Source of the DNA: Candidatus Aenigmatarchaeota archaeon
GTDB lineage: Archaea; Aenigmatarchaeota; Aenigmatarchaeia; GW2011-AR5
Direction of reading: 5' to 3'
NCBI GenBank assembly: GCA_016187335.1
Contig: JACPJW010000001.1
Location: forward strand, 448,001-512,000
DNA length: 64,000 nucleotides
Positions within the stretch are counted from its first letter, which is position 1. Each line of letters opens with the position of its first letter. Both the position numbers and the translations under genes were made by a program. The notes beneath the pieces were generated by a model. That model made no database searches. It was not told where the DNA came from and saw only the letters and a list, made by a program, of their open reading frames with translations. Positions 7,398 through 62,481 of the stretch are shown piece after piece.

Positions 7398-7661
7398 GCG
7401 CCCGTAGCTCAGCTTGGCAAACTTTGCTACTCCAAAGTTTGATCAAAAGAGGTCTGTGACGAAGTTTGAGCAAATAGAGCACTTCTCTCCTAGAGGTGAA
7501 TTGAGCGCAACGGAAGACTGAAGTTTCTGAAGAAACTTCAGCCGGTTTTGTGCGATGATAATTTCCTGAAGTGAGGAAGGGGCCGCGCGTTCGAATGCAC
7601 CCTTTCTTGGAAAGAAAGCGTGCACGGAAAGAAAAGGGTGCCGAATATCGCGCCGGGCGCG
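7398..7661 (+). tRNA. tRNA-Arg(CCT) with three introns (7418-7473 D-loop, 7493-7573 at 37/38, 7596-7647 at 59/60)
   Basis: Exons join to a full cloverleaf: GCGCCCG/CGGGCGC acceptor stem, GCTC/GAGC D stem, CTTCT-CTCCTAA-GGAAG anticodon arm, GCGCG-TTCGAAT-CGCGC T arm. Each junction forms a BHB or relaxed BHB. Confidence 0.9.
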
Positions 7662-7664
7662 CTT

Positions 7665-7967
7665 ATGTTCCATTACAGAGATCCGATAAGGGAAATAGCG
7701 GAAGAAGACGGATATTTCCTCACCGAGACAGCCGAAGGTATGAATCTTGCCTTGAAGACAATCTTAGGCTTTGCAAGCATAATACTCAGGGAACTGGAAG
7801 GGGGGAAATGTTATGTAAAAATAGTACTTGAGCCTCCTAGAGGTTTATCAAGGACAGCCGAAGAAATTTTTGAAAGTCCTTATTCCGCGGCCGGATATGT
7901 TGCAAAATGGATGTGCGGACCTATCTATACGGATCTGGTTCAAGAAGTTGAGGCGTTAATTCTCTAA
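7665..7967 (+). CDS. Hypothetical protein
   Basis: 100-aa ORF starting 3 nt after the tRNA. The track's 7620 start lies inside the tRNA intron. Confidence 0.55.
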   Translation: MFHYRDPIREIAEEDGYFLTETAEGMNLALKTILGFASIILRELEGGKCYVKIVLEPPRGLSRTAEEIFESPYSAAGYVAKWMCGPIYTDLVQEVEALIL

Positions 7968-8001
7968 TCTTTATATTCCGCCTTCGCACAAAAGATTCAT
8001 T

Positions 8002-9339: not shown

Positions 9340-9360
9340 CGTTTTTAATAGTGATGCTGA

Positions 9361-10572: not shown

Positions 10573-10927
10573 AGATCCGGCCGGCGTCAGCGGCTGGTGG
10601 TTTCTTTCCCTGAACCGACCTTTCTGCGGCAAACTTGCAGAGGATGACAAATCTGCTGTTCAGTTCGCCGCGGTCAAGCTTGTTTTCAAAAATCACGGAA
10701 GCCAGTTTTCTCGCCTCTGAAATTATTTCGTCGTTGGAAAAAACCCTGTCGTTTTTCCCCCTTATCCTGCGCAGGTATTGCGATATTGCCGGCTGCGATA
10801 TTCCCATCAGCCTTGCGGCCTCGCTCTGGTTAAGATTGTAGCCCTCAATAAGCTCTCTGGCTATCAATGATCTCAGAGACGGAACTATTTCGCTGGCAAT
10901 CAGTTCCCATTCAATTTTCATTTTCAA
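10562..10927 (-). CDS. HTH transcriptional regulator (archaeal COG2522-like)
   Basis: IVPSLRSLIARELI...NQSEAARLMGISQPAISQY HTH motif. Confidence 0.8.
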   Translation of the reverse strand: MKMKIEWELIASEIVPSLRSLIARELIEGYNLNQSEAARLMGISQPAISQYLRRIRGKNDRVFSNDEIISEARKLASVIFENKLDRGELNSRFVILCKFAAERSVQGKKPPAADAGRISIA

Positions 10928-10999
10928 TCACCGATGCAAGGAGAAGCAAAGCTTCTATGATAAGAGATTGAAACAAACGTTTTTAAGCCTGATAAGTTT

Positions 11000-11107: not shown

Positions 11108-11162
11108 AATCAGAACCCATCATGTTAATTAATTTTATTTAGTCGGTTCCGGTACCTCCGAC

Positions 11163-11687: not shown

Positions 11688-11747
11688 AAGAAAAAATTCT
11701 TTTGATATTTTTTAAAGCTTATAACGAACGGGAGCGAACACATATGC

Positions 11748-12678: not shown

Positions 12679-12682
12679 CTTT

Positions 12683-13191: not shown

Positions 13192-13451
13192 GCCGGGATA
13201 CCGAAATCAGGTCTCTCAAGATAAGAGTGAAGAAATTCACGATGATTGCCTTTCATTGGTAAACGGGCCAGTGCAGTTCCGCTTCAAAGAAGCGGTGCGG
13301 CCAACCTTGAGAGCTGGTGCGCCTTCGGCGCGTGGGGGTTCAAAGCACCCTTTCTTTTTGCAAAAGAAAGCGTGCGCGGAAAGAAAAGCAACTTTTCAGA
13401 AAAGTTGCATCAAAAATAAAGGAAAGGGCTGTGAAATTCCCTCTCCCGGCG
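13192..13451 (+). tRNA. tRNA-Ser(TGA) with three introns (13209-13256 D-loop, 13272-13304 at 30/31, 13345-13437 at 59/60)
   Basis: Spliced product has GCCGGGA/TCCCGGC acceptor, CCAG|C-CTTGAGA-GCTGG anticodon arm, GCGCC/GGCGC variable arm and GGGGG-TTCAAA|T-CCCTC T arm. BHB central helices GAAA/TTTC, GGCC/GGCC and TTCA/TGAA. Confidence 0.9.
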
Positions 13452-16460: not shown

Positions 16461-16732
16461 GCGGCCGTCGCCAAGAGGCCCTTTTTAGAAAAAAGCGTCT
16501 ACGGAAAAACTAAAAAGCGTCTGGAAATCTGGTCAAAGGCGCGGGTTTCACTTGAGTGTTGATGCGCAAGCAGGTGAAAGCGTAACTCAAGGCAGCTGAC
16601 GAGGCTGACGCACTTCGTGCGTCATGCTGTTTGATATCCCGTCGGTTAGTCCGTTCGGCGGTTCGAATGCACCCTTTCTTAGAAAGAAAGCGTGCACGGA
16701 AAGAAATGGTGCCGAAAATCCGCCCGGCCGCA
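16461..16732 (+). tRNA. tRNA-Leu(CAA) with four introns (16476-16527 at 15/16, 16546-16584 at 30/31, 16592-16635 at about 37/38, 16668-16718 at 59/60)
   Basis: Spliced sequence GCGGCCG TC GCCAAG|TCTGGTCAAAGGC G CGGG|A CTCAAG|A TCCCG TCGGTTAGTCCGTTC GGCGG TTCGAA|T CCGCC CGGCCGC A is a standard archaeal Leu cloverleaf. The 59/60 BHB is perfect and the others are relaxed. Confidence 0.88.
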
Positions 16733-17708: not shown

Positions 17709-20700
17709 GTGGTAAAGATGACGCTTATACTAAGAATAAACGGGCATAACGTTGCAATAGCCCCGGGCGCTCCTTATCCGACAGGGGCGTTTCCGCCCGC
17801 AGGAGTTGTTTTGCCTGCCGGCGAGCAGGAGCTGGATTTTTATTGCGAAGTCCAGACTGGCGGTCCAGGTGCTATTCCTGCCGGCTACGGTGGAAACTGG
17901 TTCTTTAATTTCTTTTCAGTGGACGACGGGATTTCCATAAATCCCAATCCCGAAACTCCAAGGCCGACAAACGCTGTGAAATTCAAGGCAAAACTGAAGC
18001 CCGGGGCTCACCAGATACTTGTAAGGGTTCAGGGAAGCCTGAGATTGCCGGCAGGGTACCCTCCTGTTGAATACGTCATGTTAACAATAACAATCCCGCC
18101 GCCGATAACGACATTGACAGTCAAAATAAAAAGCCCTGAAAACAATTCCAACGTAGTCCTAAAAAGAACTCCTGCAGGACTGCCTTATCACGACCCCCTG
18201 AATTTTCAGTGCGAAATAAAAGGCGGAAGGTCTCCTTACATTGTCAGATGGTTTTCATATTCTGAATCAAATTTTAATGTATACACCGTGTCCAAAATAC
18301 TCGTACACGAGGAAACGACAAAAAGCGGTTCTGTATCTTTTTCGCGCGGAGGAGAAGAATACCCGGTTCCTGCAAAGACGCTTCCACCTCCTCCAGCGCT
18401 ACCTCCACCGTTTCCACCGCCTCCGGATCCAAAAATTCCGTTCAGCCTGCTTGAAGGCAGGCATACAATTAGTGTAAACGTAGTAGATTCAACTGCGCCT
18501 GCGCCAATAACAGTCGGTGATATGGTCAATATCACGGTGAGCACGGAGCCTAAAAAAGCAGGAGACATACTTCCGGGCGGCGACGAAAGCCTGGGAGGCG
18601 CTGCCCGCGGCAGGGAAGGCATGGGGCTTGCGGGCCTTCCCGGAATCAGGAAAAGGCTCGGCAAAGAAGTGGGAAGGCTTGACTGGTCAAAGCGTGCGGC
18701 AAATCCTGCATTGCGCTCAGCTATCAACAGAGGCAAGAAACTGCTTGACCAGGCGACCAATGCCGCTTACTACAGGCTCTTTGATGGCCCCGGCGGCGTC
18801 CAGCAAAGGCAGCAAAGAAGAATACGGGAGCTTGAGGACGCGAGAAAGGATTACGAAGCATCGATGAACTCACTGAGAAAATATTTCCGGAAATACAAGA
18901 TAAAGGCAGGCGTTCCGTTGCTCGTGACGGCAAGGATGGCATCCGCTCAGGACCTGACGAACATTGCAAACACGATTGCGCAGGAGCAGCCCGCGCTTCA
19001 GGCGCAGATGCAGGAGCACCAGAACGCAATAAAAAGATACCTTGAGCTGCGGGACAAATTCGACGAGACTTCCGAAAACGAAATTGATAAAGCAGGCAAG
19101 GAGCTTCAGGAATATGCAAAGCAAAGGGCAGGAACCTTTGCAACAAGGCTCGGATACCAGTACGGATTCCCTGCTAACCCTCCCGATGAAAGAAACGCCC
19201 TGAAAACCGAGCTTGAACAATACGCTGTTGATATTGCAGAAGAATTCCTGAGGCGCGGAAGGTCAAAATTTTTTGCAGCGGCGAGGTTCATGCGCCGCGT
19301 CGGACTGGGAACGGAAACAATCGCAGAAAGTTATTATAACGTTATCCGCAGCCTGTGGGACCTGATAACCGGTCCTTGGACAATCGCGTGGCTTTTCGTG
19401 GTTGCGCAGTTTTACTTCTCCTTGAGCTACATAGGCTACCAGCCTACCCTGTTGTTCACCATGCCGGCCGGCGGCGCCGTGATGATGTTCCTCATGAACT
19501 TTTCGCAGATAAAACGGCCTCTTGACGGCGTCACGCACGCGGGCGTCGGAGCGCTCTTAGGTCAGGGCATCATAATCTTCATGTTCGCCCTGGGCATCAC
19601 GCCGAACCTCTGGGGATGGGGATGGTTCGTTGGAATATGGTTCATCTTCGGCACCATAGGCGCGTTTGAGTTCTATCCCGTCGGCGGACCGCAGATAATG
19701 TTCCAGACAGCCGTGCTTGTCATCATTTTCGGCTACATAGCACTCGGCCCTTACAAGGGCTACTGGGAACTTGTAAAAGACCAGCTGAGGGCGCCTTTGT
19801 ACACCATGTACGTATCTATGAAAAACGCCGTCAATGACGTCTGGCTGCTGGCTACAAACCCCACTGCCTGGTACGCGAAGCAGCAGGTTATCAATGTCCG
19901 GCCCGAGCAGCCCATATCGTTCCCCGTGGAGATAGAAACGCCTGTTTTTGAAGGCCTGCCGCCGTCAGCGCCGGCAGGCACAGCTTTCTCCGTATCAATA
20001 GTTACGAAAAACAGCGGCAAGCTTGACGCGAAGAACATTGTCATAGAGCACGCATGCAACGAGTGGTGCGAGAACAGGGGCGCAATCGTGCCTGATGCAT
20101 ATCCGCTGCTGCATCCCGGAGAAAGCCAGGCGTTCTTCATGCAGAAGTTCGCAGCAAAGAAAGCCACGGGCCGCGAAGCGGAGTTCCGCCGTGCCCGCGT
20201 ATTCTTCAACATATCATACGTTTACCAGACCAACTCCTCTTTGCGCGTGCAGGTAATAAGCGAGGACGAGTTGAAAAGAAAGTTCCGCGACCGCGAGGAC
20301 GTTTTCAAGCCTGAGCTGGCTACGGACAAGGCAACGTCCGTGAAATTCTCGCTGAACGTAGGGCCGCAGCCGATTGTTTACAATGACAAGAAACAGGACG
20401 GGTCGGCATTCCCCAGCGAGAAGGAACGCCAGGATGCCAACAAAGGGCAGCTGCTCGTTTCCGTCAGCAACCGCAGGCCAGACGGCTTGATTATCCTGAA
20501 GTCCGAGAAGAAGAGCAACGGGGTTATTACGCAAAGAGGCAACGTGGTAATCATTCATTTCCCCGGCTCCGTCGGCAATGGCCTTAACTGCAACGGCCAG
20601 GACGCAAGGACGACAAGGGCCATGGACGGTCCGCCCGAGGACAAGGACAGGTACAGGAATATGGCGAATGAGGATGCGAAAAACGGCAAGGAGCTTGTGG

Positions 20701-22187
20701 TCTACAAAATACCGAAAGACATCGAGATGAAGCCCTTTGAGTTCCAGACGACGTTCGCGCTCTTGTGCGAGTTCAATCTGGCAAAAGTGGATACGCTCCG
20801 CACGGATTACGTTATTGCTGAATTGCCTGAGTACACCTTCAGGCTGCAAAAGACTTTGGACGTCCCAGTCACGCCTCCTATAGGCATACTGTTCGACCCT
20901 GACGAGGACACTTGCTTAAGTAAGTGCGCTGCAGGGATTGGCGTGCCGTGCATTGAAACCAGGTGCACCAGCGCGAGCAATCCTGACAGCTCTGACCAGT
21001 ATCTCCGCAGGCTTTACAACGACCCGAACACGCCGCGGTGCTGGTACGACCCGGTAGGCGGCAATATTGAAAACCCATCCGCATCTGACATACCTGGCCA
21101 GTATATCGGCTCGGCGCTCACGTTCAACAAATGCCGCTCGTGCGGCGCGTTCAGGGGCGACACTGCGTGCGAGGTTTTCTACAACAAGCAGCTCTGCGAC
21201 GAGCAAGGCAGCAAGCAATGCAACCTGAAGTGCAAGTGGACGCCTATTGAGGAGCTGAAGAAAAAGACGGCGCAGCCGACCCAGCAGGAAATCCTGCATG
21301 ACGGAAAATGCGAAAAAATGCCGGAAGCGCCTGCGCAGCCAACAACGCCCGCGGCGCCTGCAACCGGTACTGTTGGTCCTGTTTCAGCTGGCGCAAGCAA
21401 GGAACAGGTTGTAGCAAGAATAGCTGATGTATCAAAAGCAACGGGATTCAGCCAGACGGATGTTGAATGGATTTTGAAGCTTGTGATGACTGAAAGCACT
21501 CTGGCGCACTGCTGGGACGGGACAAATAGCTGCGGTGAAGACAGCAAGAATAGCGTTAAATGCGGCGACAACGGCAATTCCTGCGGATTGTTCCAGCTTA
21601 ACAAGGCTGCGCACCCGCAGTGGTACAATCCGTCGACAGCAGGATGTGATGGAAAGACAGCCTACGATATTGACTGCAACATAAGAGTAGGAGTTTCTCA
21701 CCTAAGGTCACTATACAATAGCTATTATAACAATGCGCCAAGAACGTACGCATGCAAAGGCATTCAATACAGCGGATGGGAAGCTGTGCTGAGGTATTAC
21801 AACGGCTGGCCACCATCAGGATCATCAGCATGCTCGGGAGACCCTAATTATGTCAATAATGTTGAAAGCAAAACAATTCCAGACAGCTACTTGAATATAA
21901 TTGCGTCTGTTTATCAGGGCACTCAATTCGGCGGGCCTAATTACTGCTCCTCGCTGCCAAGCAGGGCAGCGGGCGCGAAATGCCAGATAGGGGAAGGCGG
22001 ATGCAAGAGCACGAGCGAGTGCGAAGAAGTAAGGCAGGAAGTATTGATTAATGGCGAAGTGAAAGTGCTTACGCCTGACTGCAGGGACCCTGGCGCAGGA
22101 ATAAAGCTGTGCTGCTACAGCAAGGTTGAAGGCTTTGATTCCGATGCGCATTGCATAAATAAATACAACCAGAAAAAGAGCGAATGA
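17709..22187 (+). CDS. 1492-aa multidomain membrane protein with a C-terminal lytic transglycosylase (SLT/GH23)-like domain
   Basis: Ig-like and Pro-rich N-terminus, helical region, about 6 TMs, Ig-like modules, Cys-rich modules, then LVMTES / CGLFQL / DIDCNIRVGVSHL / VLRYYNG SLT motifs. Confidence 0.8.
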   Translation: MVKMTLILRINGHNVAIAPGAPYPTGAFPPAGVVLPAGEQELDFYCEVQTGGPGAIPAGYGGNWFFNFFSVDDGISINPNPETPRPTNAVKFKAKLKPGAHQILVRVQGSLRLPAGYPPVEYVMLTITIPPPITTLTVKIKSPENNSNVVLKRTPAGLPYHDPLNFQCEIKGGRSPYIVRWFSYSESNFNVYTVSKILVHEETTKSGSVSFSRGGEEYPVPAKTLPPPPALPPPFPPPPDPKIPFSLLEGRHTISVNVVDSTAPAPITVGDMVNITVSTEPKKAGDILPGGDESLGGAARGREGMGLAGLPGIRKRLGKEVGRLDWSKRAANPALRSAINRGKKLLDQATNAAYYRLFDGPGGVQQRQQRRIRELEDARKDYEASMNSLRKYFRKYKIKAGVPLLVTARMASAQDLTNIANTIAQEQPALQAQMQEHQNAIKRYLELRDKFDETSENEIDKAGKELQEYAKQRAGTFATRLGYQYGFPANPPDERNALKTELEQYAVDIAEEFLRRGRSKFFAAARFMRRVGLGTETIAESYYNVIRSLWDLITGPWTIAWLFVVAQFYFSLSYIGYQPTLLFTMPAGGAVMMFLMNFSQIKRPLDGVTHAGVGALLGQGIIIFMFALGITPNLWGWGWFVGIWFIFGTIGAFEFYPVGGPQIMFQTAVLVIIFGYIALGPYKGYWELVKDQLRAPLYTMYVSMKNAVNDVWLLATNPTAWYAKQQVINVRPEQPISFPVEIETPVFEGLPPSAPAGTAFSVSIVTKNSGKLDAKNIVIEHACNEWCENRGAIVPDAYPLLHPGESQAFFMQKFAAKKATGREAEFRRARVFFNISYVYQTNSSLRVQVISEDELKRKFRDREDVFKPELATDKATSVKFSLNVGPQPIVYNDKKQDGSAFPSEKERQDANKGQLLVSVSNRRPDGLIILKSEKKSNGVITQRGNVVIIHFPGSVGNGLNCNGQDARTTRAMDGPPEDKDRYRNMANEDAKNGKELVVYKIPKDIEMKPFEFQTTFALLCEFNLAKVDTLRTDYVIAELPEYTFRLQKTLDVPVTPPIGILFDPDEDTCLSKCAAGIGVPCIETRCTSASNPDSSDQYLRRLYNDPNTPRCWYDPVGGNIENPSASDIPGQYIGSALTFNKCRSCGAFRGDTACEVFYNKQLCDEQGSKQCNLKCKWTPIEELKKKTAQPTQQEILHDGKCEKMPEAPAQPTTPAAPATGTVGPVSAGASKEQVVARIADVSKATGFSQTDVEWILKLVMTESTLAHCWDGTNSCGEDSKNSVKCGDNGNSCGLFQLNKAAHPQWYNPSTAGCDGKTAYDIDCNIRVGVSHLRSLYNSYYNNAPRTYACKGIQYSGWEAVLRYYNGWPPSGSSACSGDPNYVNNVESKTIPDSYLNIIASVYQGTQFGGPNYCSSLPSRAAGAKCQIGEGGCKSTSECEEVRQEVLINGEVKVLTPDCRDPGAGIKLCCYSKVEGFDSDAHCINKYNQKKSE

Positions 22188-32332: not shown

Positions 32333-33634
32333 TTACTTTGATAAAAATTCCCCCAGATTCTTCTGCGTTTTTTTGTAAGATTCCGTTTCCTTTTGGTACA
32401 ACTTTTTGGAAAAGTTGTTTTTCTGAAAAGTTTCACCTATTACAGGCTTTCCGTAAACGCCGTCGTATCCTGGAATTACTTTGATATTGCCGTTCCTGTT
32501 TTTTATGATTGCATCGGCAATTTTCTCGTCAACAATTTTTGACAAGTCATTTTCTTCAACATTTAATAAGATGTTGAATTCATTCCCAAAACGATTAATC
32601 AATTTATTGTAGACTTCCCATACTTTCTTGCTGAACGTTTCCGTACTTAGAGTAACTGCAATTAACTCATTCAAAGGAATAAATTTCTTGAACGGAACGG
32701 CATTTTCAGGGACGAAGCCTTCTTCCCTGTCGGCCAGTTCTTCCACCCGGTGAAGCACGCCTATTGTTAATTCTTTCAGACATTTCGGGCACAAATTATT
32801 ATTAGCGATTGATTCTTTTGGAGGCAGCGATACGCCGCAGTTCCTGTGACCATCATAATGATATTTTCCCTCTTCCGGAAAAAATTCTAATGTCATCAAA
32901 AATTTTTCTTTGTCTTTGGCTCTGATTATGTCAATGAGTTCTTTGTACGTTATCTCTTTCATATCAAATACACAACATTCTCTTCCTAAGCGCCAAGGCC
33001 AATGAGAATGGGCATCGGAAAAAGACAAAATAGCTAAATCATCCAGTTCAGAAATTCTCCAGTTCATAGAGGGGTCGGAAGATAGACCTGTCTCGATAGC
33101 ATGTATATGATTTAGATGGTCGCCAAAACAGTCCTTTATAGAATTGAAACCGGACTGGGAACCGTAAAGACTGAAGAACGGAGTCCATATGTGTGCAGGT
33201 ATGATTTCTATATCCTTGGAAATGCTCATCAGATTTTCAACTAGTTCCATAGAATTGAACCCGAATATTGGACGGCCGTCATAGTCGCGCCTTCCTTTCC
33301 TGTCAAGCCATTCGTTTATCTGGTCGACTACCTCGAAATTAGGAGCAAGAATTATGTGATGTATGCGGTATTGTTTTCTGCCCTGCGTATAAATCAGGGA
33401 AATCTCTACCGAGAGCATAAAATTCATCCCAGCGTATTCATAGATGCCCTCGGAATGCTCAGAAAGATTTTGTTTCAGATGCTCCAGCCATTTCGGGTGA
33501 GTGAAGTCCGCACTACCCATCAGATTGAGGCCCTTTATTCTTCCATATTTAGCAATGTTATCAAGATCCAGATCCTTGGATGTCGCACGGGAATATTTAG
33601 AATGTAAATGTAAGTCAGCATAAACTATGGTCAT
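32333..33634 (-). CDS. endoQ: Endonuclease Q family protein (PHP domain + Zn finger)
   Basis: ADLHLHSKYSRATS, IETGLSSDP, FSDAHS, GKYHYDGHRNC and CPKC...GVLHRVEELAD motifs. Confidence 0.88.
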   Translation of the reverse strand: MTIVYADLHLHSKYSRATSKDLDLDNIAKYGRIKGLNLMGSADFTHPKWLEHLKQNLSEHSEGIYEYAGMNFMLSVEISLIYTQGRKQYRIHHIILAPNFEVVDQINEWLDRKGRRDYDGRPIFGFNSMELVENLMSISKDIEIIPAHIWTPFFSLYGSQSGFNSIKDCFGDHLNHIHAIETGLSSDPSMNWRISELDDLAILSFSDAHSHWPWRLGRECCVFDMKEITYKELIDIIRAKDKEKFLMTLEFFPEEGKYHYDGHRNCGVSLPPKESIANNNLCPKCLKELTIGVLHRVEELADREEGFVPENAVPFKKFIPLNELIAVTLSTETFSKKVWEVYNKLINRFGNEFNILLNVEENDLSKIVDEKIADAIIKNRNGNIKVIPGYDGVYGKPVIGETFQKNNFSKKLYQKETESYKKTQKNLGEFLSK

Positions 33635-43729: not shown

Positions 43730-43854
43730 AGCCACCGGAGGGAATTGAACCCCCAACCTATTGCTAGTTCTTTTGGGGTATGCAAAGACCTTTTCTTTCA
43801 AGAAAAGGGATTTGCTTACGAAGCAATCGCTCTGCCAGGTTGAGCTACGGTGGC
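43730..43854 (-). tRNA. tRNA-Thr(CGT) with a 51-nt intron at 37/38 (43766-43816)
   Basis: GCCACCG/CGGTGGC acceptor, ATTGC-TTCGTA|A-GCAAT anticodon arm, GGGGG-TTCAATT-CCCTC T arm. Confidence 0.92.
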
Positions 43855-44246: not shown

Positions 44247-44296
44247 TTTGTGACACATCCCTTGTTTTGATTAAACTTTTTCTAAAAGTTTAAAAA

Positions 44297-50106: not shown

Positions 50107-50180
50107 GCAAGAACTAGAGGGGAGAATGTTCTCTAAAGATTTTGCTAAAAATTCCTTTCTAAGAAAATTGCAGGAACAGA

Positions 50181-51277: not shown

Positions 51278-54200
51278 CTATTTTCTTAGCAGTTTTGTTT
51301 TGCGCGAATAAAGGAAAGCGCCGCCGACAACGACAGCAGCGGCTGCAAAAACAATGGTAAAATCTGCTATATTATAAGGTTTTGCAGTGACCTGCCCTGT
51401 GGGCGCTGTTTGATTGGCAGTTTTATTTTCGTTTTCCTGGTGCGGTGCAGCGGAGGCATTCACTGTTTGATTGACAGCTGTACTGGTTGTGTTCAGGGTT
51501 TGTCCTGCCGTATTGTTTCTGGATGTGTTTGTCGCCGCAGGCGGCGGGCTGCCGCTGCTGCTTGATGACGATGATGAGGAAGACGATGACGAAGATGAAG
51601 GCTGCGAAGGCGGCGTGTAGGTGAAAGTCACGTTCGTCTGGTTTACGTTGCTGGATGTGTCGTTCGCATAAAGAACAAGCGTGTTGCTGCCTGACGAAGC
51701 CGTTATCGTTGTGTTTGCGCAGCTGTCCAAAGTTGTGTTGGAGCCCGAATTCAGCCTGTACCAGCATTTGTCAACAGCAGCATTGTCGCTGACCGTGTAT
51801 GTTAACGATACGTTAGATGACGAATAAGTCGTTGCAGCCGGCAATGTCATTGTCAAAGAAGGCGCTGCCGTGTCGTTCCCGCCGGCGCCGCCCGAGAACG
51901 ACGGCAGAAAGAGAGTAGAGCTGTTGGCTGACAAATTGTAGCACGGCTTGTTGGTAACGTTGGCGTTGCAGGCGTTTGATATTCTTGTCGTTGTGACATT
52001 GATGCTCGTGCCGTTCAGGTAGAAATAAAGCGCGTAAGCGCGCGGGAAAGTTATTTTTGCCGTGAAGTTATCTGCTGGCAGCATGTCATTAAGGTCAACC
52101 CATACGTAGCTGTCCAATGCGCCACCAGAGTTGATGAACGCCCTTGATATATTCTGCTCTGATGTTATGTTTTTTGTCATGTTTATTGCCGCAGAAGAAT
52201 TGAGATTTCCTACAATGAAATCAGAGGTTTCTACCAGAATATTTGATATGTTGAACCGCAAGGTATAGTTATCAAATGAGGTGAGATTGTCGCTGTCAGC
52301 AAGTCCGCCTGTTGAATTGAGGAGCAGCAGCGTTATGTTCAGTCCTGACAAGCTTTGGTTAAGGCTCTTTATCACGGAAGTTATGTTTCTTGTCACGTTA
52401 ACGAAGACCCACCGCGCTTCCGTTGAATTCATATTGCCGAAGGAATCTGTGGCATTGACCCTGAAAGTATAGTTTCCTTCAGCCAGCTTTGTTTTCACCT
52501 TGAACCAGCTCAGCCCCGAGCCGTTCATTGATTCATTCACACCGTTCCATTCCAAGAATATTGAAGAAGGCACGTCGCTTGTCGTGACATTTACAGTAAA
52601 GGAATTGCTTGTGTTCAGGAAAAAATTAACTGGATTTTCAAAGGACATCTCCACGAATGCTACGTCGACGGTCACTGTTCGCGTGAGGTTCGTGGCATTT
52701 ATATTGCCTGCCTTGTCGGTCATCTGGATTTCTATTTTGTAAATGCCATCCGAAGGCACTCCCGTGCAGTACGTAGATGTGCAGGATCCATTCCATGTTT
52801 TAAGAATTGACAATGTGTTCTTCACTGTCTGGAAAGTCTTCACCCTGCTGCCGTTCTGCGCAAGAATGTACGTCGTGCTGAAATTGACAACTTCGTTAGC
52901 AGTCACATTGAAGCTTATTTCATCATAAAAGCCGTCGTTGTTCGGCGAGAAAATATTTCCCCTTGCGCCGCTGAAGCTGACATTAGCCTGCGGCACTGTC
53001 ATGTCAAAAGTTACATTTTTTTCAGTGAACGCGCTGTTTGACGCGGAATCGTTCACGTATATTTTGTATGAATGAAAGCCTTCCGAAGAGGACTTGTTGA
53101 TGAAGCAGTTAGCAGCAGAAGAGTTCATCGTCTCATTTGTTCCGTCCCATTCTAAAAAGCACCGGAACGGATTCGTTTCGTTCACTGTAACGTTAACAAA
53201 AGTGTAGTTTCTGTTCAAGAAGCGTCCGTTGTCATCGCTTATGTTTGTTATCGCAGGAAATATAGTGTCCACAAAGAACCTGATGGAGGAAAACGATGAT
53301 AATCCGTTGTCATCGATACAGGTCACGTTTACTTCATTAGAACCTTCAGGCAATACCTCATTAATGAATCCATAAGCCGAATCGAAATTATACGTGAAAT
53401 TTATTTTCAGGTTGTTCATATTGTACGTGCATTCCTGGGATGTCTGTACCCTCCTGTTGAGCAATACTTTATGTATTATGAGACTGGATTCGTTAAGATA
53501 AGTCCCGTTAGTTATGTTCGTTATATTTATTTTCGTCGCGGCGTTTGCCAGTTGATTTAGTATTTTATTATTCGATGTTACCGAGTAGCTGAGTGTCTGG
53601 TTCGGAATTATTTTCAAGATCCATAAGCCGGTCCCGCCGGAAAGGGAAAAATTAAGCCGCGTCCTGTTTTCCGGCAATACAGAAACTAACGACGAATAAT
53701 TGTAGAGCAAGGCGTTCACCGTCGCATTTCCAGTCCAGTCAATGCTGATTTCTATCGTCGTGTTCGTTACATTCAGTTCATGATACGTTGTTTCATTGAT
53801 TGAAGCGCTGAAGAGAAAGAGCTGGCCTGAAAGAGCAATGCTTGATGCCAAGGCGTATTTCTGCGTCCCGTTGACGTAAGTGCCATTCACAACCAGCTTC
53901 CAGTATCCTGATGACGGATTGGAAAAAATTATCTTTTCGTCCGTGTTGTTTATTGATAGCGAAGCGTTTCGCTGCGTGCCGGAGGGATCATAGAGCAGCA
54001 AATCCAGGTTGTTGTGCTCGCTGTAATTCTCCGGCCAGTAGAGGGTCGCGCGAAGCTCGCTGCTGCCGTCAGGCACGAAAATATTGTGCGCGCGGGAATA
54101 GTTGCCGATGATTGCTGACACGGTATAATTTATCTCACCGAGCAGCCGTGAGACATTTACAACGCCCGCCCCGTAGCTGTTGTTCTTCTCACGCCCGTCC

Positions 54201-55333
54201 GCCGTGTTCATCAGCAGTGCCTTGAACTCAGCCGGCGTAAGGTTGCCTCTCGCCTGCAATGCGAGCGCGGCAACGCCGGCTATGTGCGGCGCGGCCATGC
54301 TCGTGCCTCGCAGCGTAACAAAGCCGCCGTCGCTTGATGCGGAAGTTATCCACTCACCTGGTGCAATGATATCGGGCTTGATGCGGCCATCCCCTGTCGG
54401 GCCGCGGCTGCTGAACTCGCTTACGACATTTTTCTGTGTTCCGAGTGATCCGTTCTGCAGTTTGCCAGTCTGCCCGGAGCCCACAGTTATTGCCTTGTGC
54501 GACAGACCCGGGCTCTGTATGGACATAGCATCCGGACCTGCGTTTCCAGCGGAAACAGTAACGATTTTTTCCTGGTCCACGGCGTAATCCAAATACTGCG
54601 AAAGAGCATCGCTTCCGTCGTTATTGCCGTCAGCGCCGCCCAGGCTCAGCGTCAGCACATGCGCGCCCTGCGCTATGCACCAGTCAATACCTCTCATTAT
54701 GTCAGGATCAGGAGCGAACGAGTTTTCTGTTACGTTATCGACATTATAGAAAACTTTGGCATTGAGCAGTGACACACCCGGCGCGATCCCCCTGTAAGTA
54801 TTGTCGCCGCTTCCAACAATGCCCGCGACGTGTGTCCCGTGGCCAGTGCCGATATCATTCGTGCTGTTGCCGTCTTCATCATCCAGAACAAAATCTCTTT
54901 CTGCGACAATTCTGCCGGCGAGAGCAGGATGACTGCTGTTCATGCCCGTGTCAATGACGCACACCTTGACGCCGAAGCCGTTGTAGTATTGCCATATACC
55001 GCTTGCACCGATAAGCGGCGCAGAAACGTCAAGAAGCGGCCTGCTTTTTCTTTCAAGCCATACTTTTTTCACGCCTGCAGAATTTTCCAGGAAGGCGAAG
55101 TTAATTTTGCTTATGTTCGCGGCATAGAAGCCGCCGGTAAAATTTTCATATTCATGCGATACGGAAGCTATCAGCGGAAGCGCGGTTTCATCCGCCTTGA
55201 TGATGACCTTTACGTAATCAGTGCTCTGCCGGTAAACAGACGGCTCTATCTTGTCAGCGCTTGCAGCGGCGGCAATCAGCAGAACAGCAAAAATGAATAC
55301 AACAGGTCTCATTAACAAAAATAAGCAGGGCAC
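51278..55333 (-). CDS. Membrane-anchored S8 (subtilisin-like) serine protease
   Basis: Catalytic [11 protein letters not shown] and [11 protein letters not shown]-like and Ig-like domains, Ser-rich linker, C-terminal TM. Confidence 0.93.
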
Positions 55334-55803: not shown

Positions 55804-58800
55804 ATGATGTTGCCGATGGATATGCGAAAAGGCGTTGTCAAAGGGTTCGTAGCAGTCAGCGCAATATTCCTGCTTGCGCTAGCCGTTTTCTTCGTTGCAA
55901 ATTACGTCTTCACGGTTTTCGCAACAGCTTCTTTGTCTTCCAACAATGTCGCGGCAGGACAGGGCAATGCGACCTTTGACACGAACCAGACGGGCATAGA
56001 CATAAACATAACGATAAACATCACGTCAATAAGCGGCGGCGTGAGCCAGGCGATTCAGGCGATAGATGTCAACATTACGCAGGCAGGATTTGTAAATGTA
56101 ACGGCAGAAAATCTGAGGTGTCCTGACAGTGCAACACTGACATGGGTTAATTCTTCTCTCACCGCAGGCACTGATGTTGTGCTCCGCTGCGCGAACGGAA
56201 CAGCGGCAGGCGCAGCACAGCTTAACAACACAGTTACGCAGCTCCGAATTGTCGGATTGACAGCAAGGAACAGCCCGGGAACTCCTACGTTTAACGTAAG
56301 CCTGAAGTACAACTCTTCAATGGCTGTTGAAAACAGCACTTTGATGACATTGACAATCCTTGAACTCCAGGCATCATCTTCTTTGAATGATACGACATCG
56401 CGCATAGACGAGCAGCGCAGCTACAACTTCACCATAACAAATAACGCGACAGAAAACGAGAACTACGAAAAAATAGATGAAATCAGAATAGATTATACGC
56501 TTTCAGGATTCACGGATACAGGCGGCGCGAATGTAACGTGCCCTACAAACTTGGGAACTCCTGCATGGGACCTGGTGAACAGCTCGGCAAGCAATGTCAT
56601 AAGATGTTCAAAGCCTGCAAGCGGAGGTTCGTCTTTGGACAAAGGTTCGTCCACTAACATTGTCATCAGAAACTGGGGCGCTTCGCCGATAGCCCAGACA
56701 AGAAGGTTTATCATAATTGTCAACGGCACCAACGCCAACGGCACATACACGGTTGCAAACCAATCAAGCCCTAGCGTTGTTGTGAACGGAACAATTAATG
56801 TTACGGGAACATCTGTCACGCCTTCCACGGTTGCGAGGAACGCGACAAATGTCACTTTGATGCGTTATGCATTCAACACGGTCGGCGAGCAGTTCAACGT
56901 GTCTTTGATAAAGCTCACGCTGAGCGGCTCTGCGGCAGAAAGCGACTTTGACGGGATAAGGCTTGTAAACGACTCCAACGCCGACGGCGCGTATGACGCA
57001 ACAGACACACCTGTTTTGAACGCTTCAGCCCTTTCTGCTGCGAGGCAATACGAGTTCGTCGGCAACCTCAGGATTTCCGACAACAACACTTTGCTTTTGG
57101 TTGCAAACTTTTCCGGCTCTGCGGTGGGCGGGCGCACTTTCAGGTTCAATCTCAATGCAACATCCGACATAGATTCCCTTGGCGGGAATTCCGGCGCTAA
57201 CGTCACGGAATCATTGGTAACAACGCAGTCAAACCAGGGCACGATACACGGCACCCTTGTGGTGAAGGGATACAACCTGGTGCCTACAACGAAAGCGATA
57301 AACACTGCAAACCTTGCCTTTGCTTACCTTGAATTCAACGCGACCGGCGAGGGCATGAACATATCACTGTTCAATATTACAAGAACAGGCTCTGCAACAG
57401 ACAGCGACGTTGTCCTTGTCCGTCTGTTCAACGACACGAACGCAAATGCTGCATTTGACGCGGGAACGGACACCCAGCTCGGCGCCGCGCTGAACGCAAG
57501 CTCCAGCAGCCAATATACATTCACAGGCTTCCAGTACAACATTTCAGCAGGCAGCGAAAGCAGGATATTCATTGTCGCGAACATAACATCGGCAACAGGC
57601 GGCCGGCTTGTTTCCTTCGGCCTGAACAGGACGGGCGACTTGCAGGTTGTCGGCGCAGCGACCAACGAAAACTTCACAGCCACGAAAAACATATCGTTTG
57701 TCACCGCGCAGTCCGGGACGACAAAAATACACGGAACGCTCAATATTATAGGAAAGGCCTTGAACCCTAATACGACGGCGATAAACACAGCAGGCTTGGC
57801 TGTATTGCTCCTGAACTTTACCGCAGAGGGCGAAACGATCAACGTGACGCAGATTAATCTTACAAGGACGGGATCGGTAACTGACGGCGACGGCATATTC
57901 AACGTGAGCCTGTACAACGACACGGACAGGAGCGGAACATGGAATTCCGCGGATATAGTTGTCACAAACGACACAGCGAATGCGCTGAACGTGACAACAT
58001 CAAGCCAGTACATTTTCCTGACATTGAATGATCAATCTGGGGACCTTGCCGGCAACGGCTACAACGTAACGACCGCGGGCTCTTCCCTGCTTGTGGTTGT
58101 AACAACAAACGCCTCCACGTCAACAGGCGGCAAGACGTTCAACCTGACCCTTAACGGCTCGGGCAGCGTGCAGGCATTCACCAATACATCCGCAGTGAAC
58201 CTCACAGGCTCCACAAATGTGACGCTGACGACCACGAACGGGAATCTGACGACAATATTCGGTACCCTTGCTGTATCCGGCACGCACATAGCGCCCGCGA
58301 CAGCTGATGCGGGCCAGCTTGCCGTCGCAATATTAAATGTCACGTTCGCAGCGACGGGCGAGCAGATGAACATAACCCAGATCAACATAACGCTGAACAA
58401 TACAAACAACAACGACGCATCTGCCGTCAAGCTGTACAACGACACGGACAGGAGCGGCTCTGTGAATGCCGGCGATTTACTTGTGGCAACAGCGACGGTC
58501 TCAGGCAGCATAGCAAGGTTCGGCACAGGAGCGGGTCAGCTGTTCAACGTCAGCGCCGGCGCGCAGAAAACCATGCTTGTGGCTTACGACATTAACTCAA
58601 CGGCAACGGGCGGCGACACATTGGATGCACACTTGGATGCAGCAGGAAACTTGACCGTGACCAGCGGCACGTCAGGCTTGTCAATAACCGCGTCAGGAAC
58701 TCCGGTGAACCCTGCTGGCAGCACGCAGGTAGTTGCGTTAGTTGCTACGGTCACTCTTGATTTCACATCCACGACGATAACGGCAACCGACAACTACAAT

Positions 58801-61800
58801 TTCACTATACAGAACACGGGCGGCGAGGAAATAAACAGCATGATGATAGATTACACGGCTTCAGGCTACTTTGACCCGCTCGGAAGCGATGTGACATGCC
58901 CGACGATAGCAGGAGGGGCATGGACCAAAACGAATGTGACCACAATAAACACACTAAACTGCACTTCGCCGGGCGGTGCCAACAACCTTGCCGTAAACGG
59001 CAAGGCAAACATAACCGTAAAGAACTTCCAGGCTGGCACATCAGCGGGCATCAAGACGTTCATTGTGCAGGTGCGCGGAACATCAGGCGGATTCTTCAAT
59101 GCGACGTCCAGCAACGTTACTGTTTCCGGATTCCTGAACATAACAGGAGCGAACCAGATCGCGGCAGCAGTTGCTGTTAATTCGACAAACGTTTCCGTCA
59201 TCAGGTACAACTTCACAGCAAGTGGCGAGCAGATGAACATAACGGTGATAAAGCTCACCCGCGCGGGAACATCGCGAGAAAGCGACATTGTCAGCGTGAA
59301 ATTGTTCAACGATACTAATGCTGACCAGCTGTATACACAAGCAACGGACGCGACCCAGATAGGAACGACAAAGACAGCAAACAACACCGGTGGCCAGTAT
59401 GAATTCACCGGCTTGTCGTTCTTCGTGCCTACAGACGGCAACATGTCCCTGTTCGCTGTGGTTGAAACAGGCGGCACGACGTCAACAGGCGGAAAGACGC
59501 TGATACTTAACCTGAACGGAACAGGCGATGTCAACGCCGCCGGCTCGTCAACCGGAGCGAATATCACGGAAAACCTTACCGGAACGGCATCAACAGCGTC
59601 AACGATATTCAGCAAGTTAGTAGTCTTAGGAAAGAGCCTTGTTTCATCAACGGTTGGCCTGAACACGAGCGGCTTAGCAGTTGTCCAGTTCAACCTGACA
59701 TCGCAGGGCGGCGAGCAGATAAACATAACTGAAATAAATCTTTCAAGGGTCGGCTCCGTAGTTGACGGCGACGTATTCAACGTGTCGCTTTACAACGACA
59801 CCGACCTCTCAGGAACGTTCAACGGCGGCGACACTGCCATAGGAACTGTAGGCCTGAATACAACAGCATCACCAGGATTGTACAGATTCACGGCCATAAA
59901 CTTCAACATGACGACAGCAACGAAGACGCTGTTCGTTGTGCTTACTGTCAATGATACGGGCTCGGGCAGGACATTCAACGTGAGCATAAACTCAACAGGC
60001 AGCATCCACGCATGGGCAACGACATCAAACATCAACCTGACCGGCACAACAAACCTCACATTGACGACGGCATCATCGTCAACAACCACGATAGCAGGCG
60101 GTTTCACAGTAACAGGAAAGAACCTAGCGCCTTCAACGAAGGTCATCAGCACCGCAGGCCTGCCGGTATTGCAGCTCAACTTCACCGCGACTGGGGAAAT
60201 GATGAACGTCACAGTGATAAAGATAACGCAAAAAGGAAGTGTTACAGCCGGCGAGGTTTACAATGTTTCGCTTTATAAGGACACGGATGCCTCAGGCACC
60301 TTCAACGCAGGCGATACGTTGCTAGGAAGCCCTCAGAATACCACATCAGCTAGCCAGTATGTGTTCACAGGATTCCTGTATAACATCACAACAACGGCCC
60401 AGGGCAACAGTACCCTGTTTGTTATAGTTACTATAAACAATACTGCCGGAAACGCATTCAATCTGAGCCTTAATTCAACAGGCGATATTGATACATTATC
60501 AGACACAACCCAACAGAATGTGAGCGAAACAATAACGACAGCAGAATCTTCAACGACGACAATACACGGAACGCTCACGGTCACAGGAAAGACAATCGCG
60601 CCGCTGACGAAGGTGATAGGTACTGCGAACCTTTCCGTGCTGCAGCTCAACTTCACGGCATCAGGCGAAGCCATGAATATATCGCTTGTAAATTTCAGCC
60701 TGATAGGAACAGCAACAGAAGCTAACCTGACAAACGTCAGGCTTGTGAACGACACCAACGGCAACGGCCAGTATGACGCAACCACGGATACGCTGCTGAG
60801 CCCTGTGCTGAACACGACGTCCGGAGTATTATTCAGATTCGGCTCGCTGACTTACTTCGCGAACACGGGCGGCGTGAACACGATATTTGTAGTGGTCAAC
60901 ATTACAGGAGTAACCGCAGGCACAGGCGGCAACTTCTTCAACTTCAGCATAAACACCACCAATGACATGCATGTTGTCGGAAGAAGTTCCATAATCAACA
61001 TAACAGCCACGACAAACATAACGCTTACAAGCACGGCTTCGTCCGTGAACACGACAATACACGGAACATTGAACGTAACCGGCAAGAGCCTTGCTATTTC
61101 GGCAACAACGCCTTCAACGGCAAACTACACCGTGATGCTTATCAACTTCACGGCAGTCGGCGAGGGCATGAACATAACCAAGATAAACATAACGCGTTCA
61201 GGAACGGCAACTGACGGCAACTTCACGCTGCTGAGATTATTCAACGACACCGACCTCTCAGGAACGTTCAACGGCGGCGACCTCCAGATGCTCGGCGCCA
61301 TAAACTCGTCGACAAACGGAGAATACGTGTTCAGCGGCCTCTTCAACATCACGGGAGGAGCTAGCAACACGCTGATACTTGTAATAAACATAACAAACAC
61401 AGCCTCCGGCGGCGCAACGTTCAACTTCAGCGTGACGGGCACAGACAAGTTGCAGGTGTTCACAACATCATCAAATGTGAACCTGACCGCCTCGAGCAAC
61501 ATTACCGTAAGCAATGTGTCATCATCAACAACGACAATCAATTCAGTCACACTGCAGGGACTAAGCCTGATAGAAACAGCTACAAACAAGACGTTGGACA
61601 GCGGGACCGGCTTTTATGAAATCCCTTCAAACGAGGCTAACATAGCTGTCATGCGCATAAACCTGACTGCCGTCGGCGAGAACATGAACCTGTCAGTCAT
61701 CAAACTTACACGGGCAGGATCAAGCGGACTTTCAGATGACAACATTGTAAATGTAAGGTTATTCAACGACACCAACGGCAACGGAAGGTTTGATTCCGGA

Positions 61801-62394
61801 AGCGATACGCAGATCGGCTCGGCGGTAAACGGGGTAGTTTCCAACAAATATGAGCTGACAGGATTCCAGTATAATGTGACGACAAGCGGCGTCAACACGC
61901 TGTTCGTTGTCCTTAACACGACAGCAAAGCCTTCATGGAATCCCGAGGTGTACTTTAACCTGAGCATCGCGTCAACGGATGACGTGAACATAATAGGCGC
62001 CGTAACGGCAACCAACATGTCGGAAACGCTGACGACAGTGCTTATGAACTCAACAAAGATAACTTACAGGGGATGGTATAATTTCACCTTCACAAGCAGT
62101 GGAACCATTACCGCGTTTGGAGTCGGGTGGAACAGTTTCACTTTGCCTATACAGACGGATATAGAAGGGACTGGAAGAAACGCTTCAAGCACAGGCAACT
62201 TTAATGTATCGTCCATAATGTCGAGCTTAGGCTCAAACTGGAGGTACATACGCTACAACACGAATGGCTCAAGTACAGGCTGGGTGCTTGCCGACAGGAC
62301 AGATCCTGGAGGCTCAACGCTTCAGTACATGAACAACACGAACAGCAATCCTTACTGGATAAACATGGCTGCGACAGACAGGCTTGAGCTGTGA
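55804..62394 (+). CDS. 2196-aa repetitive Asn/Thr-rich surface glycoprotein
   Basis: N-terminal signal/TM and about 10 repeats of about 130 aa, each with an (N/K)D(T/S)(D/N)xxGxF/Y-type loop. C-terminal GWNSFTLP...YWINM domain. Confidence 0.88.
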   Translation: MMLPMDMRKGVVKGFVAVSAIFLLALAVFFVANYVFTVFATASLSSNNVAAGQGNATFDTNQTGIDINITINITSISGGVSQAIQAIDVNITQAGFVNVTAENLRCPDSATLTWVNSSLTAGTDVVLRCANGTAAGAAQLNNTVTQLRIVGLTARNSPGTPTFNVSLKYNSSMAVENSTLMTLTILELQASSSLNDTTSRIDEQRSYNFTITNNATENENYEKIDEIRIDYTLSGFTDTGGANVTCPTNLGTPAWDLVNSSASNVIRCSKPASGGSSLDKGSSTNIVIRNWGASPIAQTRRFIIIVNGTNANGTYTVANQSSPSVVVNGTINVTGTSVTPSTVARNATNVTLMRYAFNTVGEQFNVSLIKLTLSGSAAESDFDGIRLVNDSNADGAYDATDTPVLNASALSAARQYEFVGNLRISDNNTLLLVANFSGSAVGGRTFRFNLNATSDIDSLGGNSGANVTESLVTTQSNQGTIHGTLVVKGYNLVPTTKAINTANLAFAYLEFNATGEGMNISLFNITRTGSATDSDVVLVRLFNDTNANAAFDAGTDTQLGAALNASSSSQYTFTGFQYNISAGSESRIFIVANITSATGGRLVSFGLNRTGDLQVVGAATNENFTATKNISFVTAQSGTTKIHGTLNIIGKALNPNTTAINTAGLAVLLLNFTAEGETINVTQINLTRTGSVTDGDGIFNVSLYNDTDRSGTWNSADIVVTNDTANALNVTTSSQYIFLTLNDQSGDLAGNGYNVTTAGSSLLVVVTTNASTSTGGKTFNLTLNGSGSVQAFTNTSAVNLTGSTNVTLTTTNGNLTTIFGTLAVSGTHIAPATADAGQLAVAILNVTFAATGEQMNITQINITLNNTNNNDASAVKLYNDTDRSGSVNAGDLLVATATVSGSIARFGTGAGQLFNVSAGAQKTMLVAYDINSTATGGDTLDAHLDAAGNLTVTSGTSGLSITASGTPVNPAGSTQVVALVATVTLDFTSTTITATDNYNFTIQNTGGEEINSMMIDYTASGYFDPLGSDVTCPTIAGGAWTKTNVTTINTLNCTSPGGANNLAVNGKANITVKNFQAGTSAGIKTFIVQVRGTSGGFFNATSSNVTVSGFLNITGANQIAAAVAVNSTNVSVIRYNFTASGEQMNITVIKLTRAGTSRESDIVSVKLFNDTNADQLYTQATDATQIGTTKTANNTGGQYEFTGLSFFVPTDGNMSLFAVVETGGTTSTGGKTLILNLNGTGDVNAAGSSTGANITENLTGTASTASTIFSKLVVLGKSLVSSTVGLNTSGLAVVQFNLTSQGGEQINITEINLSRVGSVVDGDVFNVSLYNDTDLSGTFNGGDTAIGTVGLNTTASPGLYRFTAINFNMTTATKTLFVVLTVNDTGSGRTFNVSINSTGSIHAWATTSNINLTGTTNLTLTTASSSTTTIAGGFTVTGKNLAPSTKVISTAGLPVLQLNFTATGEMMNVTVIKITQKGSVTAGEVYNVSLYKDTDASGTFNAGDTLLGSPQNTTSASQYVFTGFLYNITTTAQGNSTLFVIVTINNTAGNAFNLSLNSTGDIDTLSDTTQQNVSETITTAESSTTTIHGTLTVTGKTIAPLTKVIGTANLSVLQLNFTASGEAMNISLVNFSLIGTATEANLTNVRLVNDTNGNGQYDATTDTLLSPVLNTTSGVLFRFGSLTYFANTGGVNTIFVVVNITGVTAGTGGNFFNFSINTTNDMHVVGRSSIINITATTNITLTSTASSVNTTIHGTLNVTGKSLAISATTPSTANYTVMLINFTAVGEGMNITKINITRSGTATDGNFTLLRLFNDTDLSGTFNGGDLQMLGAINSSTNGEYVFSGLFNITGGASNTLILVINITNTASGGATFNFSVTGTDKLQVFTTSSNVNLTASSNITVSNVSSSTTTINSVTLQGLSLIETATNKTLDSGTGFYEIPSNEANIAVMRINLTAVGENMNLSVIKLTRAGSSGLSDDNIVNVRLFNDTNGNGRFDSGSDTQIGSAVNGVVSNKYELTGFQYNVTTSGVNTLFVVLNTTAKPSWNPEVYFNLSIASTDDVNIIGAVTATNMSETLTTVLMNSTKITYRGWYNFTFTSSGTITAFGVGWNSFTLPIQTDIEGTGRNASSTGNFNVSSIMSSLGSNWRYIRYNTNGSSTGWVLADRTDPGGSTLQYMNNTNSNPYWINMAATDRLEL

Positions 62395-62481
62395 TAAACT
62401 TTCTTAGAAAGAAAGTTTAATCAAAGAAATAATCCCTTTTATTTTTATTTGCATTATATTCATCAGAACGGGTGTGGAAAA

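Follow-up and report, generated by a model that had tools for sequence, protein, structure and literature searches.

A short hairpin-plus-tail module dispersed through gene spacers and RNA-gene introns of an Aenigmatarchaeota genome

The module in the window and in the genome

The 64,000-nt stretch analyzed here, referred to as the window, spans positions 448,001 to 512,000 of contig JACPJW010000001.1 (C2:448001-512000) of a Candidatus Aenigmatarchaeota archaeon (GCA_016187335.1; G000 in the comparisons below). Among its protein-coding and intron-rich tRNA genes lie copies of a 28-nt module, a hairpin built from AACTTT and AAAGTT arms that is followed by an ATCAAAA tail. Our comparisons show over 100 copies of this module, dispersed by copying into noncoding but transcribed slots, as well as gains and losses of copies between congeners. 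The slots lie after stop codons, upstream of Shine-Dalgarno sequences or start sites, in one dispensable open reading frame (ORF) tail, in other repeats, and in the introns of RNA genes.

The original prediction, made from the letters of the window alone, had listed five copies of the hairpin. The pattern AACTTT-N0-12-AAAGTT-N2-4-CAAA, referred to here as the strict pattern, returned exactly these five (Table 1), compared with an average of 0.02 in dinucleotide shuffles, and a search with the 3' half of the module alone, allowing at most one mismatch, recovered the identical sites (0.94 expected). A sixth, "degenerate" copy was not upheld, as it differs by more than one mismatch from the 3' half and by more than three from the whole module. 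A 17-nt identity between copy 5 and a Leu T-loop intron had also been noted, and we found CTTTCTTAGAAAGAAAG at both 62399-62415 and 16674-16690. This 17-mer occurs three times in the whole genome and no more. The intronic occurrence belongs to a module of a second repeat family, family 1, which reads CCCTTTCTT-aga-AAGAAAGCG + TGCACGGAAAG at this site. An identical twin of copy 5 is located outside the window, at C2:155825.

Table 1. Module copies and related features of the window (positions count from the first letter of the window; the fourth column gives the extent of the strict-pattern match)
Feature	Position	Strand	Strict pattern	Sequence and context
tRNA-Arg(CCU) gene	7398..7660	+		Three introns: D-loop, 3' side of anticodon stem, T-loop 59/60
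Module copy 1	7418..7448	+	7420-7447	CAAACTTTG-ctactc-CAAAGTTTG + ATCAAAA; D-loop intron of tRNA-Arg(CCU)
Module copy 2	13388..13415	+	13390-13414	GCAACTTTTC-a-GAAAAGTTGC + ATCAAAA; T-loop intron, immediately 3' of a family-1 module
Family-1 module core	16674..16690	+		17-nt CTTTCTTAGAAAGAAAG in T-loop intron; equals core of copy 5
Module copy 3	32391..32418	-	32392-32416	ACAACTTTT-cca-AAAAGTTGT + ACCAAAA; C-terminal tail of TIGR00375-family (EndoQ-like) ORF
Module copy 4	44265..44292	-	44266-44290	TAAACTTTT-aga-AAAAGTTTA + ATCAAAA; occupies spacer of two co-oriented genes
Excluded candidate	50140..50169	-		Loose resemblance to the module only; excluded from the family count
Module copy 5	62395..62426	+	62397-62425	TAAACTTTCTT-aga-AAGAAAGTTTA + ATCAAAG; intergenic

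The contexts that had been assigned to the five copies also held. When the tRNA gene around copy 1 was spliced by hand, ARAGORN called it tRNA-Arg(CCT), and the gene around copy 2, which the original prediction assigned to tRNA-Ser, has a 7-bp acceptor stem and a T arm. Downstream of copy 1, up to about position 7470, a subfamily extension, GAGGTCTGTGACGA, precedes a second copy of the 3' arm (AAGTTTG). Copies 4 and 5 are intergenic, copy 4 beginning 3 nt past the TAA of the upstream gene and copy 5 starting on the base immediately after the TGA of a 2196-amino-acid (aa) ORF (55804-62394). Copy 3 lies inside an ORF (32333-33634, minus strand) and is translated as NNFSKKLYQK, as had been claimed. 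This ORF matched TIGR00375, which we take to be the EndoQ family, over residues 6-396 of 433 with a score under the curated cutoff. Because the match ends at residue 396, copy 3 sits in a nonconserved C-terminal extension.

The assembly derives from groundwater metagenomes and comprises 1,014,551 bp in two contigs (C1 and C2) at 47% GC and is 90.8% complete. The ends of the contigs overlap each other at 95-98% identity (C1 1-250 with C2 917793-918042; C1 96133-96509 with C2 1-362), and the assembly thus in effect closes into a single circle of ~1.01 Mb. Genome-wide, we counted 106 matches to the strict pattern and 120 copies of the 3' half, AAAGTTNNAYCAAA. The claim of an oriented and abundant hairpin family was supported, at a density of ~120 copies per 1.01 Mb; a reversed control pattern gave no matches in 41 genomes.

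The module has the layout NN-AACTTT(T)-loop-(A)AAAGTT-N'N', with a sharp stem end to which ATCAAAA is joined at once. The hairpin is perfect in 99 of the 120 copies, with arms of 8-12 bp and loops of 1-3 nt (6 nt in the ctgctc subfamily), and some subfamilies bear an additional extension of 10-20 nt. At the outer two stem positions, 10 of the 16 possible dinucleotides are used, and the opposite arm is always the exact complement. These outer dinucleotides are independent of the inner stem and loop type (mutual information test, p = 0.13) and of the flanks, and no consensus target motif was found in the 5' flanks of the copies. Loop type is a strong predictor of the three bases that follow the tail (p < 0.0005), and these bases often lead into a second copy of the 3' arm that is able to pair with the 5' arm and loop. 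The full modules fall into 74 distinct sequences; the most frequent 28-mer is found unchanged six times with unrelated flanks. Copies also form tandem arrays of two or three, and eight lie nested inside family-1 modules, with CCCTTT on one side and AAAGCG..CGGAAA on the other. No Rfam family matched the module at any copy in this genome or in 16 foreign loci. A triple-helix reading was dropped because the purine arm has no mirror repeat in the tail.

Family 1 (CCCTTT-Y-run-loop-R-run-AAAGCG-N3-5-CGGAAAG) is itself abundant. It is found in the window at 16670-16715, 7585-7640, and 13348-13385 and about 45 more times genome-wide, and its members form T-loop introns with textbook bulge-helix-bulge (BHB) motifs of the hBHBh' type.

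Module copies in RNA genes and between protein genes

Module copies are overrepresented in tRNA genes, whose introns the original prediction had put forward as putative safe havens or reservoirs. Using acceptor-stem and T-arm pairing to recognize tRNA genes, we placed at least 17 of the 120 copies within them (17 being a lower bound), compared with 0.75% (3/400) of random positions flagged by the identical test. In RNA-gene introns, the 5' arm pairs with the distal second copy of the 3' arm to form the inner helix of the BHB splicing motif, and the first 3' arm and the tail are placed in the loop of this helix. The module therefore supplies most of the intron. Splicing restored tRNA-Arg, and T-loop introns in this subset have hBHBh' motifs, as expected of BHB introns. 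In the T-loop intron of tRNA-Arg(CCU), which is a family-1 hairpin, the motif reads GCGCG TTCG AAT GCACCC ... GGGTGC CGAA TAT CGCGC. Both ARAGORN and Infernal missed the unspliced form of this gene, and neither made a call at two other intron-rich tRNA loci.

Intergenic copies were not enriched in BHB motifs; BHB-like flanks accompanied 32 of 103 non-tRNA copies on the sense strand versus 44 of 103 on the antisense strand. BHBs seen at tandem dimers were dismissed as pseudo-BHBs that arise only through slippage of A/T runs. Two non-tRNA copies, C2:242574 and C2:209926, have strong BHB flanks, with an inner helix of 10-11 bp and an outer helix of 4-6 bp, and these probably mark introns in an unannotated rRNA or other structured RNA gene.

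Two further observations concern splicing and intron content. A single splicing endonuclease gene was found despite the many noncanonical introns in tRNA genes; it encodes a 202-aa alpha-type subunit (PF02778+PF01974) in the C2:409032-412310 region. A 187-aa ORF without a Pfam match adjoins this EndA gene on the same strand, and it was rejected as an EndA relative because BLASTP gave no similarity to EndA. At window positions 43730-43854, a tRNA gene and its orthologue on contig C11 of the congener (G001:C11) share an intron position, with content that is unrelated and very different in length; intron content therefore turns over faster than intron position.

Most copies are intergenic. On a crude ORF map, the flanking genes are tandem for 43 copies, convergent for 18, and divergent for 18, so that all spacer types are occupied roughly as the filling of free space would predict. 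Copies are oriented along the transcript. Sense copies outnumber antisense copies by 34 to 9 between tandem genes and by 17 to 0 in tRNA genes; the latter ratio is 5 to 1 in the congener and, among the matches listed, 13 to 1 in other archaea, where about one false positive is expected. Overall, 26 copies on C2 are on the plus strand and 83 on the minus strand. A replication-strand bias was set aside as inseparable, since gene orientation and GC skew covary with these strand counts.

The hairpin also keeps a regular position relative to upstream stop codons. For 44 copies, a co-oriented ORF of at least 80 codons ends no more than 60 nt upstream, and in 20 of them the stop codon ends at -3 to +2 of the first base of the hairpin. 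In eight copies, the TAA or TGA of the hairpin itself serves as the stop codon. The distribution of antisense stop distances, used as a control, was flat. A Shine-Dalgarno-like GGTG or GAGG is usually found between the tail and the next ATG, and one copy lies directly 3' of the 16S 3' end. Sense orientation together with the fit to stop codons suggests a transcription-linked constraint or mechanism. The earlier description of the occupied positions as neutral sites thus stands only in part: tolerated positions are filled, but strict sense orientation and stop-codon fit point to a link with transcription.

The ORF whose stop codon borders copy 5 is one of three very long ORFs in the window, the others being 17709-22187 (1492 aa) and 51278-55333 (1351 aa). 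It has no Pfam match at E <= 0.001, and the next gene after it (62449-63810) encodes a PGF-pre-PGF domain.

Turnover, distribution, and the search for a mover

We compared the genome with that of its congener G001 (56% complete, 88 contigs; 333 reciprocal-best orthologues with a median protein identity of 73%) across 178 syntenic gene spacers common to both. Spacers empty in both genomes numbered 148, whereas 18 were filled in G000 only, 8 in G001 only, and 4 in both, 2 of these with orthologous copies. The predicted change of sites between relatives was thus evident, with orthologous copies in only 2 of the 30 occupied spacers. One orthologous copy is in a tRNA intron and shows compensatory stem changes; the other is at C2:377888.

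The endoQ tail and the gap at 44265 had been proposed as places to look for empty alleles, and both are empty in the congener. The endoQ-like tail there is missing a 33-nt in-frame stretch that includes the module, and the genes flanking the gap abut (TAAAATG) with no module between them. The cleanest pair of alleles is at C2:892620, where the congener reads TGAATG and G000 carries 52 nt, the module and a GTGGTGA extension, exactly between the TGA and the ATG. Target-site duplication, for which the original prediction had proposed a scan, was absent from this pair; the bases that flank the stem are complementary to each other and are not direct repeats. Nor did the ATCAAAA tail preexist at empty sites.

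A RAYT/TnpA(Y1)-like gene had been suggested as a partner of the module. PF01797 (Y1/RAYT), PF07282 (TnpB), and PF00078 (reverse transcriptase) had no match in G000, in searches whose positive controls worked, and PF01797 was also without a match in G001. Across 41 relatives, Y1 and the motif were unassociated (4 genomes with both, 11 with the motif only, 8 with Y1 only, and 18 with neither), and the two motif-richest genomes fall among the 11 with the motif only. Given this absence and the lack of association, the RAYT model fails its defining test. We found no multicopy ORFs in the genome and no insertion sequence (IS)-like multicopy genes. Apart from the overlapping contig ends, the sole DNA repeat of at least 250 bp was a 1.6-kb duplicate that has diverged to 74% identity; no search was made for individual DDE families. 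The lone tyrosine recombinase match, at C2:737809-738315, is in a 461-aa open frame and lies ~600 bp from a tRNA gene (C2:738924-739023) that bears two module copies.

In the comparison of 41 genomes, the strict pattern was counted 56 times in G000, 14 times in the congener, and one to six times in each of 13 others of the family or order, with none in the remaining 26. When one genome per prokaryotic species was searched, at least 118 loci matched. Archaeal matches, among those listed, were from Methanosarcinales, Methanocellales, Methanomicrobiales, Methanocaldococcus, Methanobrevibacter, ANME-1, Altiarchaeota, Hydrothermarchaeota, and several DPANN phyla. At least 13 of the archaeal matches are in tRNA genes, several at the canonical 37/38 position, and Rfam confirms three. 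Among the matches listed, the module was present in tRNA introns of Methanocellales, Micrarchaeota, Altiarchaeota, Woesearchaeota, Nanoarchaeota, and Methanosarcinales. In Methanosarcinales metagenome-assembled genomes (MAGs; loci L050, L090, L091, L097, L104, and L105), the module is part of a composite repeat of ~120 nt, CCCGAAGGGCATTTCTTACTCG ... module ... second similar arm, which occurs in tandem and recurs in several MAGs.

Bacterial matches, among those listed, came from Oscillospiraceae, other Clostridia, and one Aminicenantes MAG with more than 15 copies. The same 25 letters are found there within longer GC-hairpin repeats and are followed by CTTTT. Two GC-rich hairpins with compensatory changes precede the 25 letters, giving a three-arm, GATC-centered palindrome (L027, L033, L088, and L121 in the Aminicenantes MAG; L016, L034, L124, and others in Oscillospiraceae/Clostridia), and assemblies break at these loci. 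The bacterial repeats may be an undescribed REP (repetitive extragenic palindrome)-like or structured-RNA family. Bacterial contigs bounded by inverted copies (L034 and L124) were set aside, since they contain housekeeping genes only and no transposase. Viral matches comprised 102 loci, mostly from AT-rich giant-virus MAGs, and the outer pairing is kept in only 56 of 127 matches; we take part of them to be low-complexity look-alikes. Module-like units also recur in tandem, three to five at a time and every 29-38 nt, in AT-rich viral contigs of IMG/VR (L233, L241, L239, and L312), some of which are giant-virus MAGs.

Explanations and relation to known systems

We favor, with a probability of about 0.6, the reading of the module as a nonautonomous small palindromic repeat, similar to REP sequences or miniature inverted-repeat transposable elements (MITEs), that fills tolerated slots and also builds BHB introns. 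It would spread at the DNA level, by copying and insertion without target-site duplication, under a trans-acting driver that would not be a Y1/RAYT, TnpB, or reverse transcriptase encoded here. Candidates for this driver are an enzyme of the host, one since lost, or one carried extrachromosomally. Selection in a compact genome would then spare only copies that splicing can remove or that fit exactly into the gap from one stop codon to the following gene. Stems that are perfect yet variable would reflect a constraint on a folded single-stranded form, either RNA or single-stranded DNA.

Several observations weigh against this reading. No mobilizing enzyme was found among Y1, TnpB, and reverse transcriptase, although the contig ends overlap like those of a closed circle. 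The empty site at C2:437219 resembles a deletion remnant, and losses of copies therefore also occur. Comparison of 2017 and 2020 populations over the densest 20 kb (13 copies) revealed no presence/absence polymorphism, on contigs from four groundwater DNA runs that break at repeats; the 2017 population was identical where covered, with indels confined to one tandem pair. The case for mobility would thus come solely from the congener, in which insertions and deletions look alike. Finally, a selected RNA signal would account equally well for copies that lie strictly in sense and for letters that stay the same from one archaeal phylum to another.

The module could accordingly be primarily such a signal, a hairpin and A-rich tail kept by selection at gene boundaries and in introns for 3'-end protection, processing, translation coupling, or binding of a conserved RNA-binding protein, with spread by duplication being secondary. 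The sense bias, the hairpins that start exactly at the stop codon (20/44), the Shine-Dalgarno-like sequence between tail and ATG, the perfect covariation of the stems, the core and tail letters shared across archaeal phyla, and the copy immediately after the 16S 3' end are all what a functional RNA would show. We nevertheless consider this explanation unlikely, if the strongest of the alternatives, given that 28 of the 30 occupied spacers are unshared and the orthologous genes of the congener manage without the element. Copies are moreover present in all spacer types in roughly the proportions of free space, and others form tandem arrays, occupy an ORF tail, or lie within other repeats.

A mobile mini-intron is very unlikely. 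Here, BHB introns would, once excised, enter other transcripts by reverse splicing and return to DNA by copying, a route with which the strictly sense orientation in RNA genes, the role of the module as the inner BHB helix, the strong BHB-flanked copies at C2:242574 and C2:209926, and the lack of target duplication are consistent. It would, however, call for a reverse transcriptase, which the closed genome lacks by PF00078; among non-tRNA copies, the sense strand shows no excess of BHB-like flanks over the antisense strand, and the copy in the ORF tail is in frame and needs no splicing.

The remaining alternative concerns promoters and terminators. A general promoter signal is present in this genome: TTTAAA, 13.6-fold enriched, falls between -30 and -23 relative to start codons and is immediately preceded by A-rich positions, T-rich positions at -30 to -27 being followed by A-rich positions at -26 to -22 (348 ORFs with spacers of at least 70 nt). 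So sharp a signal relative to start codons suggests that many mRNAs are leaderless; operon-internal genes have GGTG/GAGG Shine-Dalgarno motifs. Modules of the TA type read AAAAGTTTAATCA, which the copy at 44266 places at -29 from the ATG, and a few copies cluster 30-34 nt ahead of first ATGs. In most of the clustered copies, the tail is followed by a Shine-Dalgarno sequence, which would place the module inside the transcript, and the promoter reading was rejected for most copies on this ground. As the least probable of the readings, a terminator-promoter cassette, in which the T-run of the 5' arm would end the upstream transcript and AAAAG-TTNNATCA would mimic the B recognition element and TATA box of the next gene, can draw on the TTTAAA signal and the clustered and TA-type copies, but it leaves the need for a perfect covarying stem unexplained, meets a T-run of only 3-4 nt in many copies, and appears to conflict, as a general role, with the 18 copies between convergent genes and with those in tRNA introns (at least 17) and an rRNA spacer, where a terminator or promoter would harm.

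A bolder extension of the favored reading, which we hold to be doubtful, is that the hairpin and tail are the vehicle by which archaeal BHB introns are born. A palindrome moved independently of a transposase or by housekeeping enzymes would insert sense specifically, coupled to transcription, into any transcribed DNA. If this is true, landing in a self-complementary loop (TTCGAA of the T-loop or AGCU of the D-loop) would create a spliceable BHB almost free, and one module would have given rise to introns repeatedly across archaeal phyla, with look-alike families in bacteria.

In the literature searched, no such module is described. It resembles REP/REPIN sequences in being a short extragenic palindrome with a fixed tag beside the stem, in high copy number, oriented, and often at gene 3' ends, with compensatory stem changes and no target duplication. 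It differs in having a 3' ATCAAAA tail with heterogeneous 5' flanks, whereas REP sequences have a 5' GTAG/CGTC tag; in the absence of a RAYT/Y1 gene and the lack of correlation of Y1 with the motif in relatives; and in its archaeal host and its copies within introns of tRNA and probably rRNA genes. Because the two defining features, the 5' tag and the RAYT gene, are lacking, the module is not a member of REP/RAYT. Archaeal MITEs and PATEs are IS-derived miniature elements that are nonautonomous, short, and dispersed and have palindromic ends. The module is likewise nonautonomous, short, dispersed, and palindromic, but it is essentially a hairpin alone, and it does not look like a classical MITE, since target duplication is lacking and no parent element, such as a related full-length IS or its transposase, was found among the multicopy ORFs and long repeats of the genome.

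Other small palindromes share its locations. Rickettsia palindromic elements (RPE) are tolerated in frame inside protein-coding genes, and the Correia elements of Neisseria lie at gene boundaries within transcripts and have TA duplications and long terminal inverted repeats. Both, at 100-150 bp, are longer than the module, and to our knowledge neither has been reported as an intron building block, the role that sets the module apart.

The arrival of tRNA introns in archaea is an open question, and here one short module ties what introns contain to a repeat that abounds between genes. The genome is closed, its gains and losses can be counted, copies obey a strict strand rule, and no transposase of a classical type was found, which makes predictions about landing sites, strand, and host factor testable. 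The module also affects annotation, as it breaks tRNA detection, supplies stop codons, and adds residues to proteins.

The closest precedent is in Thermoproteales, in which near-identical BHB tRNA introns occur in different tRNA genes and positions of one genome (Fujishima et al. 2010, as presented in PMC4090602); the mechanism of this "intron transposition" is described there as still unexplained and presumed to act at the DNA level. Transposed introns of Thermoproteales served as a positive control in a 2026 census of Asgard tRNA introns, which found repeated gains and left the route of arrival open (bioRxiv 10.64898/2026.10.13.758758, section 2.5). The recurrence of near-identical intron content within one genome is common to Thermoproteales and the present case. 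Unlike those introns, the 28-nt module is commoner outside tRNA genes (at most about 100 of 120 copies), between protein genes and in an ORF tail, and it recurs across archaeal phyla. To this background, our analysis adds a whole-genome comparison of spacers, statistics on orientation and stop codons, a table of Y1 association, and a BHB control, and it extends the "intron transposition" of Thermoproteales to a module that lives mostly outside tRNA genes.

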